DNA of 49,487 bases, taken from NCBI GenBank assembly GCA_043754535.1, contig JAYUUN010000036.1:1-49487 (forward strand), read 5' to 3'. The translations under genes were made by a program, and so were the position numbers. This DNA comes from Chloroflexota bacterium. Lineage in GTDB: Bacteria > Chloroflexota > Chloroflexia > QHBQ01. Below the pieces are notes generated by a model. The model had not been told where the DNA came from and did no database searches. It saw only the letters and a program-made list of their open reading frames with translations. Positions 34,595-43,173 of the stretch are shown piece by piece. Numbering within the stretch: the first letter of the stretch is position 1; every line of letters begins with the position of its first letter.

Positions 34595-34926
34595 ATGCTG
34601 ACGCGCATCGAGATAGATGGCTTCAAGAGCTTCCAGGACTTCAGCATGGACTTCGGCTCGTTTACAGTCATCCTGGGCCAAAACGCTTCCGGCAAATCGA
34701 ATCTGTTTGACGCAATCAGACTGCTCTCTCGCTTGGCTGCTGAGAACTCGGTTGCCGCTGCCTTTAGCGGTGTACGTGGATCTATCGGGAAGGTGCCACC
34801 GCTGCTAGCTTTCTAGCCGAGCTAGGCCGTGAGGTGCCAATCAAGAAGTTGCGCCAAGTACCATCGTTCCAACGCTTTGAAGCTGATTTGCGAAAAGCCC
34901 TGGTTGCAATGGGCATTCTGGAATAA
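34595..34926 (+). pseudogene. Remnant of an ABC/AAA_21-type ATPase (N-terminus) joined to the C-terminus of a DUF4276-like partner gene
   Basis: MLTRIEIDGFKSF...GQNASGKSN stops after 73 aa; another frame reads [41 protein letters not shown] ending at 34926. Confidence 0.7.
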
Positions 34927-34930
34927 AAAC

Positions 34931-37618
34931 ATGAACATCCTTGCTTTCGAGACATCCTGCGACGAAACTTCTGCGGCGATCATCCGCGACGGGCGGCGCA
35001 TCCTCAGCAATGTAGTCGCTTCGCAGATCGACCTACACACCCTCTGGGGTGGGGTGGTGCCAGAACTTGCCAGCCGCCAGCACATCCTCTACGTGATACC
35101 CACCCTGGAGGAGACTCTGCGCCAGGCAGGGCTAACCTGGGCCGAGGTTGACGCTATCGCTGTCACCAACGGGCCGGGGCTGGCGGGCGCGCTGCTAGTT
35201 GGGGTGAACGTGGCTAAGGGGCTGGCCTTCGCCCTCGGCAAGCCGCTGCTGCCTGTTAACCATCTGGCGGGTCACATCTATGCCAACTGGCTGATCCCCA
35301 CCGCCAACGCTGCCCCCCAGCCGCTCGTCGTTGCTGCGCCAGAGCCGCAACCTGCTCCCGCCCCAACCGCCAGCCTGCTGGATACTGGCAGCCGCCGTCG
35401 CGTCCTTGGTGCCACTGAACTGCCCCCCTTCGAGCGGCAGGGTACACCGATTGCCGTGCCTGAACTGCGGGTGCAGCCGCCAATTGTTGAGGCAAAGAAG
35501 GAGAAGGAAACAAAGGAGCCTGGGGAGCCAAAGTTCCCCCTCGTCTGCCTGGTCGTCTCTGGCGGGCATACCGAGTTGGTGCTGATGCGCGGGCATGGCC
35601 GCTACGAACTACTCGGCAAGACGATTGACGATGCAGCGGGCGAAGCCTTCGACAAGGTAGCGCGCCTCCTGGGTCTTGGCTATCCTGGCGGCCCTGCGAT
35701 CCAGCAGTTGGTAGAGGAGACCCACGCCGACCCACGCGCCATTGATCTCCCACGGGCCTGGTTGCGTGGCAGCTTCGACTTCAGCTTCAGCGGCCTCAAG
35801 ACTGCTGTGCTACGCAAGGTCGAGGAGTATGGCGGCCTGCCTATCCGTCCTAAGATTCGCCCCTTCGCCGAGGTAGAGGCCGAGCAGCAGCAGCGTGACC
35901 GCCTGGCTCGTGAAGCCGAGGCTGCCCGCCCGCCGATCATCGTCGCGGGCAAGGCGAAGGAAGTACAAGCTGACTCGACCGCCGCCCCAACCAACCCGCC
36001 AGCCACGCTCCAGGCCGCAGTACCAGCGCAAGAAGACAGCAGTACACAAGAGCCTACACCCGCTGCGCCCGATCAGACAGCCATGCGGCCAGCGGAGCAG
36101 TTGCGCCCAGCCGCTCTGCGTCCACTGCGCACCGCCAATGCGGGCAGCAGCGTGCGCCCGCGTCGCCCCGACATCGCGGCTGGCCTGCGCGCCCAACTGC
36201 TGGGTGATGAAGCCCCCGTACGGGCAGCCCGCCCTGCTGGTTCTGTACCAGACGAAGATGAGGATGATGGAGAGGAGCAGCCGACTACGCCACGAAGCAA
36301 GCGGATAGCCGCCAGTGGCCCCGCTCTCTTGCGACCACGCCTGCCACTGGTGCAGCAGTCTGGCGATGAGGACGATGAGGACGATGAGGATGAGGACGAT
36401 GAGCAAGGGCAGCAGCTAACCCGACCCGCCAGCCCACAACCGTTGAGCGGTGCCGCGGGGCTACAACGCCGCCCCCTACCCTTGCGCCCCCTCGCACCGA
36501 CTGACGACGAGGACGACGGCGATGAAGATGAAGATGAGGACGGCCTCCCGCCCTTCACCAATCCTGCCCGTTCCACAGTCCCCGCTGGCCCCGGCCTGCA
36601 ACGCCGCCCCTTGCCAGGAATGCAGAGCAGCCAACCAACTACACCTGCCAACCCATCTGCGCCCCTACCAGGCGACAGCAGCGCGCAGCGCAACAGCAGC
36701 CAACCAGTCAGCCCCCAGAGAAGTGGGGCTGAGGAGCAGTCCGCTGGATTGATCCGACGCAGTAGCACCAGTGGCACGGGCAACAACCCGACCACTAGCC
36801 GCCCACCCCAACACAGCGGCATGAGCGAACCACCACAGCCCAGCCGTCCGCAACAGCAGCCACCAGCCCAGCCCACACGTGGCAATCAGCCACCCACTGC
36901 TGGCAACCGCCCAAATACCCCCTCGCAGCCACAACGTCCCGCTAGCGGCAGCCAGCCACCCCAGCGTTCGACCAGCAGCAGCAACCAGCCTGTGCGGCCC
37001 AGCAACCAACCCGTGCGCCCTGCCCCCCCCCCACCGAAGCCGCTGGCCGACCGCCCAATCTCGGCGGTGCCGAAAGGCAACCGCGCCGCCGATGTGCAAG
37101 ATGAGGACGCGGAGTTGGAGGAGCCAACCCGCCACGCCCTCGGCTCGGCTGCCGACGACGAGCCAGAGGATGACAACCGCCCCCGCCCGCACCGCAGCCT
37201 CGGCGCAGAGGAGAACGCAGGCCGCCCGCTGGTCAGCAGCAGGCTGGCTAAGGACAAGCCGCCGCTTGACCCAGAGGACTTTCCGCTGGCGGAGATCGCC
37301 GCTGCCTTCCAGTTGGCAGTGATCGAGGTGCTGGTCGAGAAGACTGCCGCCGCTGCCGAACAATATGGTGCAAAGTGCGTGATCCTTGGTGGCGGCGTGG
37401 CAGCCAGCAAGCTGCTGCGTACCATGCTGGCCGACCGCCTCAGCAGCCCATTGCTCTATCCGCCCCCAGCTCTCTGCACCGACAATGCAGCGATGATCGG
37501 TGCAGCGGCCTTCTACCGCTACTATCATCCGCAGGCTCCCGACCGCGACAAGGCCGACTCCTCCGACTGGGCGATGGACATTGAGCCGAACGCCCACTAT
37601 CTGGGCAACGAAGAATGA
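34931..37618 (+). CDS. tsaD: tRNA N6-threonylcarbamoyltransferase TsaD with two large low-complexity insertions (~895 aa)
   Basis: [68 protein letters not shown]. Confidence 0.92.
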
Positions 37619-40500: not shown

Positions 40501-40575
40501 GCGGGAGTGGCTCAGTGGTAGAGCATCTCCTTGCCAAGGAGAAGGTCGCGGGTTCGAGCCCCGTCTCCCGCTCCA
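40501..40575 (+). tRNA. tRNA-Gly (GCC)
   Basis: GCGGGAGTGGCTCAGTGGTAGAGCATCTCCTTGCCAAGGAGAAGGTCGCGGGTTCGAGCCCCGTCTCCCGCTCCA: cloverleaf, GCC anticodon, CCA end. Confidence 0.97.
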
Positions 40576-40625: not shown

Positions 40626-40788
40626 GTGCCGCCTATCAGAATAAGGCGATTGCTGTGGTCTCAGCAGGGGGCAAGTGGAAGATTTATGAAACGTTTATCC
40701 CCCTTTCTACCCGGTTATGGTATGATCAAGCAACGAGGTGGTGGGATGCGCCACCGACGTAGGACGCAGGCAAGTAGGAGGGTACAAG

Positions 40789-41322
40789 ATGCAATTCAGT
40801 GGGTTGGTGATCGGCGGGGCGATGTTCCTGGCGATCTGGGGCGGCCATGTGGGGGTACGTTGGTTGGAGGCACACAGCGTGCGCGTGTGGCCCCCTGCAT
40901 TGCTGCTGTTCCTGGCAGGCACGGGCCTGAACCTCTACGCCCTGTTCGGCAGCCGCGACGTGCTGCCAGGCGGCTTGTGCAGCGTCGTCGGCTTCACCTT
41001 GCTGTGGGATAGCCTGGAGGTATACCGCCAGATGTGGAGGGTGCTGCACAGCCACGCCCCTGCGAACCCAGCCAATCCCCGCCACGCCGCCTACTTGGCC
41101 GCTGGCAAGGGGACACTGGTTGACCTGCTCAAGCGCGAACCGCAGGGCAGCCGCTACGAGCCACCTGCGCCCCAGGCCGCTGCGCCAGTGGTGCCGACCT
41201 TTGCTGCAAGCTGCCCGATCTGCCACGACGCGAGCTGCATCCTCAGCCAGCGGCGGGCTGCTGTGCTACGTCAAGATTGGAATGCCGTGCGGGGCTGGCG
41301 CACAACGGAGGTGCAGGCATGA
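40789..41322 (+). CDS. DUF4491-like membrane protein
   Basis: Three TM segments; MQFSGLVIG...H...E and LLWDSLEVYRQ pattern paralleling the next gene; AGGAGG RBS. Confidence 0.65.
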   Translation: MQFSGLVIGGAMFLAIWGGHVGVRWLEAHSVRVWPPALLLFLAGTGLNLYALFGSRDVLPGGLCSVVGFTLLWDSLEVYRQMWRVLHSHAPANPANPRHAAYLAAGKGTLVDLLKREPQGSRYEPPAPQAAAPVVPTFAASCPICHDASCILSQRRAAVLRQDWNAVRGWRTTEVQA

Positions 41323-41651
41323 ACTGGGCTGCGATAGCTATGGGCTTCTTTTCACTGGGCATCATCGGCCTCGGCTTCTTCTGGGTGATCCGCATGGAAT
41401 ACTACCTCGGCTACCTCTGGTGGCCCTATGTGCTGGCGGTTGGGGTGCTGCTGCTCGGCGGCTCACTATTCGTCGCTGACGCTGGCTGGTCGGCCCTGCT
41501 CGGCATCTTCGGTGGCTCGGTGTTTTGGGGTGCAACGGAGTTGAAGGAGCAGGCAGTGCGGGCTGAAGTTGGCTGGTTCAAGTTCCGCAGCCCCAAGCAG
41601 GAGCCACCTGGGGTCGAGCGAATCAGGAAGTGGCACGCTCCGCACCTCTAA
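41319..41651 (+). CDS. DUF4491 family membrane protein
   Basis: VIRMEYYLG, SALLG, FWGATELKEQ, GWF; ATGA-coupled to the previous gene; GGAGG RBS. Confidence 0.75.
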   Translation: MNWAAIAMGFFSLGIIGLGFFWVIRMEYYLGYLWWPYVLAVGVLLLGGSLFVADAGWSALLGIFGGSVFWGATELKEQAVRAEVGWFKFRSPKQEPPGVERIRKWHAPHL

Positions 41652-41823: not shown

Positions 41824-41852
41824 TGGACAGGGTGATAGTTATGTGGTATAAT
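41824..41852 (+). promoter_or_regulatory. Dedicated promoter of the stand-alone rpoA
   Basis: TGGACA-17 bp-TATAAT with extended TG. Confidence 0.7.
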
Positions 41853-41921
41853 AACGTTTGCGCCCGACTTTGGCGAGGCGTATTTGTGTTTGCATAACTT
41901 ACCAGTGGGGGGTGGATCGTT

Positions 41922-43100
41922 TTGCTGGATATTATCCTGCCCGAAATCGAACAGATCGTCACCGATGTGGATCATGCTCGCTTCAAGATCGAGCCGCTGG
42001 AGCCAGGTTGGGGTTACACGCTGGGCAATGCCCTGCGCCGCATCCTGACCAACTCACTGCCGGGTGCAGCCGTGACCGCCGTCAAGCTCTCCGCCGAACC
42101 GGGCGCAGATGGGCGGCTACCGCAGATCGAAGAAGATATCATTGACGTGATCCTCAACACCAAGCAGCTACGTCTGCGCTACCGTGGCGACCAGCCCGTG
42201 CGTGTTCACCTGAAGGTGGACGGCAAGAAGGGGTCGCTGACCGCCGCCAACCTGCAACTGCCAGAGGGGGTCGAGGTGATGAACCCCGACAGCGAACTAG
42301 TGCATAGCACTGGCAGCAAGGGGGGGTTGGAGATCGAGATGCTGGTACAGCAGGGCTTTGGCTACAGCCCAGCAGAGCAGCACGCCGAATACACGCCCTT
42401 CGATATGACCCCGATTGATGCGCTCTACTCGCCAATCCCCCGCCTCAACTACGTCGTCGAACACACCCGCCTCGGCCAGCGCACCGACTACGACCGCCTA
42501 CTACTGGATATCTGGACTGATGGTTCGATTGAACCGGTCGAGGCTCTGCGTCAGGCTGCCCAAATCCTCACCCGCCATGGGCAGATCGTCGCCAGCTTCA
42601 GCGGCACGATTGTCGAGGACGAGGTAGAGGAGGTGGAGGAGGTGCCGGTCACTTCGCCTAGCATCAACATCCCGATTGAGCAACTTAACCTTACCAGCCG
42701 CACCTTCAACGCCCTCAAGCGGGCTTACATAGACACGGTGGGCCAGGTGCTAACCATGACCGACAACGAGTTGCTCGGCCTGCGGAACTTCGGCCAGAAG
42801 GCGTTGGACGAGCTGCGCGAGAAGCTGGTTGAGCGGGGGTTGGCTGGCGAAGCAGCGGCTAACCCCCTGCGCGGTAGTCTCACCCCCATGGGCCACGAGC
42901 AGGGTGGTGACGATGATAGCGGCCAGGACGCGCCAGAGCAGACTACCAGGAGCAGCAAGAAGACGAGCAAGCAGGGCAGTCGCCTGACCAGCCTCAGCGA
43001 ACTCGCTACTCTTGCACCTGATTTGGACAGTGAAGACCAGGATGAATCAGGAGAGGACGAGGCAGACAAGGACGAAGTAGACCAGGGCGACGCAGAGTAG
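41922..43100 (+). CDS. rpoA: RNA polymerase alpha subunit, stand-alone and divergent copy with acidic C-terminal tail
   Basis: EPLEPGWGYTLGNALRRIL, IDALYSP, IWTDGSI, alphaCTD IEQLNLTSRTFNALKRA...RNFGQKAL. Confidence 0.92.
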   Translation: MLDIILPEIEQIVTDVDHARFKIEPLEPGWGYTLGNALRRILTNSLPGAAVTAVKLSAEPGADGRLPQIEEDIIDVILNTKQLRLRYRGDQPVRVHLKVDGKKGSLTAANLQLPEGVEVMNPDSELVHSTGSKGGLEIEMLVQQGFGYSPAEQHAEYTPFDMTPIDALYSPIPRLNYVVEHTRLGQRTDYDRLLLDIWTDGSIEPVEALRQAAQILTRHGQIVASFSGTIVEDEVEEVEEVPVTSPSINIPIEQLNLTSRTFNALKRAYIDTVGQVLTMTDNELLGLRNFGQKALDELREKLVERGLAGEAAANPLRGSLTPMGHEQGGDDDSGQDAPEQTTRSSKKTSKQGSRLTSLSELATLAPDLDSEDQDESGEDEADKDEVDQGDAE

Positions 43101-43120
43101 CATAGCAACAACCCAACAGC

Positions 43121-43156
43121 AAAAGCAGCCCTTTGCTATCCGCAGGGGGCTGCTTT
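43121..43156. terminator. Bidirectional terminator between rpoA and ftsK
   Basis: AAAAGCAGCCCTTTGC-tatcc-GCAGGGGGCTGCTTT. Confidence 0.8.
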
Positions 43157-43173
43157 CGTCTTCGCTCCTTCAC

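Follow-up and report, generated by a model that had tools for sequence, protein, structure and literature searches.

The window, that is, the whole stretch of 49,487 nucleotides that was analysed (contig JAYUUN010000036.1 of assembly GCA_043754535.1, order QHBQ01 of the Chloroflexia), carries an rpoA gene at 41922-43100 on the forward strand, which starts with TTG and encodes a full-length alpha subunit of RNA polymerase (RNAP). The protein contains domains PF01193, PF01000, and PF03118 and scores 274 bits against TIGR02027 (cut-off 227.8); the N-terminal dimerisation domain (NTD), the insert domain, and the C-terminal domain (CTD) of the RpoA class are thus all present above curated cut-offs. 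AlphaFold, using 31 sequences, predicted the NTD and the CTD with confidence and the linker and the tail with low confidence (mean pLDDT 75), and the predicted fold matches alpha chains in the PDB. The gene lies outside the alpha operon, preceded by two DUF4491 genes and followed by a convergent ftsK gene, as a first-pass annotation of this DNA had described. The features of the locus are as follows, with single residues numbered as in E. coli alpha.

41824-41852, forward strand: sigma70-type promoter-like site with -35 TGGACA, a 17 bp spacer, and an extended -10 TG-n-TATAAT (11/12 matches)
41859-41882, forward strand: small hairpin where the predicted 5' leader begins, common to family f1 (weak covariation)
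41907-41915, forward strand: G-rich Shine-Dalgarno-like sequence ahead of the TTG start, with similar G-runs upstream of many relatives
41922-43100, forward strand: rpoA paralog, 392 aa, predicted beta'-side (alphaII) subunit (domains, loop alignment, and fold)
42024-42041, forward strand: helix H1 segment, equivalents of N41, R44, and R45 retained (alignment)
42093-42137, forward strand: replaced beta-contact loop (residues 58-72 of this protein, E. coli 63-77), H66, E67, and Y/F68 lost (alignment)
42465-42497, forward strand: retained beta'-contact loop (E. coli 190-200) with R191, T196, and K/R200 (alignment)
42651-42830, forward strand: alphaCTD, R265, N268, N294, G296, and K298 kept, Ala at 269 and 299 (domain match, alignment, and fold)
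42843-43097, forward strand: tail, predicted to be disordered, with two acidic blocks flanking a basic block and a short motif (composition and pLDDT)
43119-43159, no strand assigned: terminator-like hairpin between the convergent rpoA and ftsK genes (folding compared with shuffles)

The promoter that the first-pass annotation had assigned to the gene is well founded as a prediction. The site is near consensus, and it is considered to be beyond chance because an extended -10 element (TGnTATAnT) recurs at most 200 nt upstream of 30/33 stand-alone rpoA copies of the order, versus 0/31 operon copies. The leader hairpin, compared in five sequences, has 11 predicted pairs, only one of them with a two-sided change. 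The hairpin downstream of rpoA has a folding energy of -27.4 kcal/mol (z -4.8), and none of 200 shuffled sequences was equally stable. As for the separate terminator proposed earlier, the stable 3' hairpin does exist, but a terminator scan of the window found none and did not list it. As the longer U-run falls on the ftsK strand, the structure is most plausibly a terminator-like hairpin shared by rpoA and ftsK. Seemingly strong hairpins also lie 3' of many other stand-alone copies.

The stand-alone copies form single-gene units whose neighbours vary, none of these being conserved across families, and a functional link of rpoA with DUF4491 or ftsK was rejected, such neighbours occurring in this genus only (2/33 stand-alone loci). 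Codon adaptation is uninformative (0.62 for the window gene, 0.60 for the operon copy, and 0.60-0.63 for the neighbours). The two DUF4491 genes (40738-41651) encode membrane proteins, stand in tandem with overlapping stop and start codons, and are located downstream of a tRNA-Gly gene (40501-40575). Further upstream, at 34829-37618, is encoded a 929 aa protein, presumably TsaD-like, that is interrupted by very long low-complexity and partly acidic insertions.

A second rpoA gene is present in this genome (89% complete) on contig C9, at 42081-43157, within the gene order rpsM-rpsK-rpsD-rpoA-rplQ-truA. The window gene is therefore a paralog, as had been suggested, and a simple relocation of rpoA is ruled out. 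The two products are 40% identical, with 87/225 residues shared in the NTD and 32/59 in the CTD, and rpoB and rpoC each occur once in the same 89% complete genome. Both rpoA contigs are typical of the bin in tetranucleotide distance (ranks 10 and 28 of 55); mis-binning is ruled out by this composition, by the order-wide occurrence of the gene, and by a family branching that is the same as that of the operon copy. In family f3, two genomes contain a second rpoB-like stretch, 80-82% identical to the beta fragment of this genome (G006:C3:397892-399466 and G016:C43:9509-10609).

The order was sampled with 35 genomes (G000 and 39 relatives, minus four unpublished genomes and G035, a 62% complete genome in which no rpoA match was found). 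Both copies were identified in 29/35, the stand-alone copy alone in four, and the operon copy alone in two; these six one-copy genomes are 63-81% complete, and repeated searches gave no second copy in them. By the family model, which a very divergent second copy could escape, two rpoA matches occur in 27/28 order genomes at least 80% complete (24/25 without the unpublished G007, G012, and G015), and in every order genome with a completeness of 90% or more and a contamination of 5% or less (9/9 without unpublished genomes). Elsewhere in the class, a double match is confined to family f10, which comprises Chloroflexus and other Chloroflexaceae proteins (22/30 genomes), and one match was found in 92/93 others, including the unpublished G152; outside the class only G175 has two (1/222, a count that includes the unpublished G187, G304, and G307). 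rpoA is thus not usable as a single-copy marker in these lineages.

The surfaces by which alpha contacts the large subunits have been assigned to residues 30-55 and 65-75 for beta and to 175-185 and 195-210 for beta', R45 being named there as the determinant for beta and position 200 as one for beta' (PMC3294249). AlphaR191 is described as forming a salt bridge with D410 and D413 of beta' (PMC9177976), and the beta' of this genome has Asp and Glu at these places. From the order, 33 stand-alone and 30 operon copies entered the alignment, together with 10 pairs from f10, the pair of G175, E. coli alpha, and 39 alphas of Chloroflexota genomes that carry a single copy; the G030 operon copy (internal stop), one short fragment, and three loci belonging to unpublished genomes were omitted, and two of the aligned stand-alone copies are cut by contig ends. 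The omitted G030 gene (L059, contig C5) has an in-frame TAA just before the HEF motif and is otherwise intact, an assembly error being likely.

The HEF motif of the beta-side loop (H66-E67-F68) occurs in 0/33 stand-alone, 30/30 operon, and 39/39 single-copy alphas, and R191 of the beta'-side loop in 33/33, 0/30, and 39/39, respectively, counts that represent one evolutionary event, the order genomes being kin. The same division emerged from an unbiased scan of every column that single copies conserve (155 columns, with 31 stand-alone rows of full length). Nine positions were lost in stand-alone copies only, three of them in the beta footprint (N41, H66, and Y68) and none in the beta' footprint; eight were lost in operon copies only, five of them in the 190-200 loop (R191, V192, 193, T196, and K200) and none in the beta footprint. 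The replacement of the HEF segment reported in the first-pass annotation is confirmed, and its suggestion that the window copy is specialised for one of the two alpha positions gains a direction, since the reciprocal motif loss points to the beta' side.

Other contact residues are less sharply divided. N41, retained in the window copy, is kept in only 4/33 stand-alone copies, and R45 in 30/33, with Lys in the other three. At the dimer interface (positions 35, 38, 39, 46, and 50) the pair of this genome is conservative (W/Y, T, L, I, and S); Trp35 is found in 33/33 stand-alone copies, and T38 is retained in only 14/30 operon copies. In the operon copies of family f2 (L044-L062), acidic insertions of about 15-25 residues replace the beta' loop.

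The first-pass annotation held that the CTD keeps its DNA-contact pattern, which is correct for R265, N268, N294, G296, and K298 but not for C269 and S299, both Ala in the window protein. Ala at 269 is found in 32/32 stand-alone CTDs and Cys in 30/30 operon copies; Ala at 299 is found in the stand-alone copies of family f1 (5/5) and Ser in 30/30 operon copies. The tail (residues 308-392) has 23 D/E and 7 K/R in 85 aa and a pLDDT below 50 over most of 310-381, in agreement with the earlier description of an acidic, disordered extension. Its sequence varies more than that of the core (relative to G001, 67 aligned codons contain 17 non-synonymous changes). A short motif after the lysine-rich block (42981-43007) is conserved in 5/5 stand-alone tails of f1 and is a possible binding motif.

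Acidic tails are not peculiar to the stand-alone gene. Median tail lengths in f1, f2, and f3 are 71, 23, and 6.5 aa for stand-alone copies and 45, 127.5, and 52 aa for operon copies, and the operon tails are the more acidic in all three families. Stand-alone tails of f3 have 5-8 residues, and tails of at least 30 residues that are acidic occur in 13/39 single-copy alphas. A DNA-mimic role of the tail is unsupported, and its being specific to this paralog is contradicted by the tails of the operon and single copies, although acidic tails may serve some wider function in Chloroflexota. The f2 operon tails (L044-L062) are acidic, 117-147 residues long, and share a conserved internal motif.

Both rpoA copies are under equal purifying selection. 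In 11 genome pairs, dN/dS was 0-0.17 for the stand-alone copy and 0.01-0.10 for the operon copy, some dS values being above 1, and the window gene differs from that of the nearest genome by 36 synonymous and no non-synonymous changes, results that rule out a decaying copy or pseudogene. In a tree of 42 of the 125 aligned proteins, from which both loops and the linker had been taken out, each copy formed a well-supported clade with the branching (f1,(f2,f3)); both copies are therefore older than the radiation of the order. The tree did not show the two clades as sisters, nor was their sisterhood rejected when they were constrained together (AU p 0.35); the stand-alone clade has a long stem branch and was placed near other Chloroflexia families without resolution. 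An origin by duplication is likely, transfer from another Chloroflexia lineage being a conceivable alternative. Orthology, or one shared duplication, with the Chloroflexus copies was rejected by AU tests of three groupings with Chloroflexaceae copies (p 0.001, 0.001, and 2e-6), tests which long branches weaken somewhat.

These observations are probably explained by a constitutive and oriented alpha heterodimer, in which the window gene would provide the beta'-side subunit, alphaII, and the operon copy is predicted to be the beta-side subunit, alphaI. A duplication would have preceded the split of the three families of the order. The copy next to beta' would then have lost its unused beta loop, and the copy next to beta its unused beta' loop, by which both copies would have become needed. 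Transcription of the stand-alone gene would be constitutive, with no other gene in the unit, and assembly would proceed from the alphaI-alphaII dimer to the binding of beta on the operon copy and then of beta' on the stand-alone copy. Against this explanation, the window copy keeps N41 and R45, the latter a key beta determinant that was lost by Francisella alpha2. Because both residues are kept and the dimer interface is conservative, homodimers and weak beta binding by the window copy are possible. Loss of the R191 loop may also leave the partner non-essential, as E. coli alphaR191C is reported to be viable at low temperature (PMC9177976) and Francisella alpha1 to be weakly active by itself (PMC3294249). 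The order genomes in which one copy or none was found, and a tree that does not recover the two clades as sisters, also speak against it.

A different division of labour would have the operon alpha form an everyday homodimer, with the stand-alone alpha swapped in conditionally to alter the response to promoters or activators through its CTD and tail. This possibility, close to the first-pass idea of a conditional subunit that reprograms RNAP, would account for the own promoter and hairpin, the variable neighbours, the low CTD identity between the paralogs, and the consistent Ala/Cys difference at 269. It is unlikely, however, and the first-pass idea is weakened, given that the operon copy is devoid of the R191 loop in 30/30 cases, that dN/dS is equal in both copies, that the predicted promoter is near consensus and of housekeeping type, and that both copies occur in all nine near-complete order genomes.

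Both alphas might instead be used with an orientation that is merely preferred, so that mixtures of homo- and heterodimers give active enzymes, in keeping with the retained R45 and N41, the conservative dimer interface in this genome, and the weak activity described for alpha1 alone in Francisella (PMC3294249). That both loops are reciprocally lost without exception in three families, and that the lost loop of the f2 operon copies carries long insertions, makes this quite improbable. That the stand-alone gene is foreign, mis-binned, decaying, or moved from RNAP to another role is highly improbable: its order-wide distribution, a branching of the families that matches that of the operon copy, the absence of non-synonymous changes relative to the nearest genome, the typical contig composition, and the intact predicted fold all weigh against it, although the long stem branch, the unresolved placement near other Chloroflexia families, and the lack of neighbours conserved across families would be compatible with such an origin.

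The two copies of Chloroflexus and its relatives (f10, loci L074-L093) show a comparable loss of loops with reversed polarity. Their non-operon copy has HEF in 10/10 and R191 in 1/10 cases, and their operon copy has R191 in 10/10 with a partly eroded HEF (strict motif 1/10, His 4/10, and Phe 5/10). In 9/10 loci the non-operon copy lies upstream of a gene which we take to be rho-like. As judged from the AU tests, this pair is a separate event from that of the order; two splits of alpha within the class are therefore likely, the locations of the genes being swapped between them. The duplication in Chloroflexus had been noted in a study whose alignment also shows this reciprocal pattern, and the two alphas were suggested there as possibly functionally equivalent (PMC3294249). 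In G175, a single genome with 4% contamination, the non-operon copy (L124, L139 being the loci of the pair) is without HEF and N41, and the operon copy has both loops.

Two alpha paralogs, only one of which belongs to the ribosomal operon, are likewise found in Francisella, where a heterodimer of alpha1 and alpha2 was reported by Mukhamedyarov et al. (2011), reconstitution requiring both alphas and alpha1 alone giving low activity (PMC3294249). According to the alignment of that paper, the operon-encoded alpha1 keeps the HEY loop and has the 190-199 loop deleted, and alpha2 has lost HEY, N41, and R45 and kept the R191 loop, which is the same polarity as in this order. The genome studied here similarly combines two non-identical rpoA genes with one rpoB and one rpoC; alphaII-type copies of the order are devoid of the beta-contact loop 65-75, and alphaI-type copies of the beta' determinants, with Arg at position 200 in 6/30 and Ser in this genome. 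Loss of Arg45 from the alphaII-type copy does not extend to the window protein; in the same alignment, alpha2 has F, K, and Q where the window copy has N41, R44, and R45. In comparisons with the Francisella alpha1/alpha2 chains (PDB 6wmp, chains A and B), the window protein scored 89/134 bits, the operon copy 146/92, a single-copy control 150/130, and the non-operon and operon copies of f10 138/90 and 130/124, respectively. Dimer-interface residues are more changed in Francisella than in this genome, and, of the two pairs, the Francisella heterodimer is the one demonstrated by experiment. Francisella belongs to another phylum, and the two pairs arose separately.

In the literature searched, largely outside subscription journals, no paper was found that treats a pair of alphas in this order or a reciprocal loss within Chloroflexota, and Francisella was the sole experimentally shown case of a bacterial alpha heterodimer. 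A 2026 review describes the bacterial alpha scaffold as a homodimer, and the passages searched in it mention neither Francisella nor Chloroflex- (PMC13374769); another paper, in the part available, only restates the Francisella case (PMC13627669). The two-alpha kind of enzyme (Francisella) and the duplication in Chloroflexus are already known, and the order-wide case adds one of independent origin. Together with the mirror-image pair of Chloroflexus, which is cultured and harmless, it makes the path from a homodimer to an oriented heterodimer, and the role of each alphaCTD, directly testable.

A broader view, offered tentatively, is that replacement of the alpha homodimer by a fixed alphaI/alphaII pair might be a repeated one-way step in bacteria, taken at least twice in Chloroflexia, where the gene locations are swapped between the two cases, and perhaps once more in the phylum (G175), by loss of the same two loops as in Francisella. 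CTDs and tails, held from then on at defined positions, could diverge towards position-specific contacts with UP-elements and activators, and a separate promoter could control RNAP assembly apart from the ribosomal-protein operon. These lineages might then represent living stages towards Rpo3/Rpo11. The archaeal Rpo3/Rpo11 and eukaryotic Rpb3/Rpb11 pairs likewise form an asymmetric scaffold, of which one partner binds the beta-like subunit (PMC3294249; PMC13374769); they differ from the pair of this order, where both partners are still bacterial alphas of full length that include domain 2 and a CTD.
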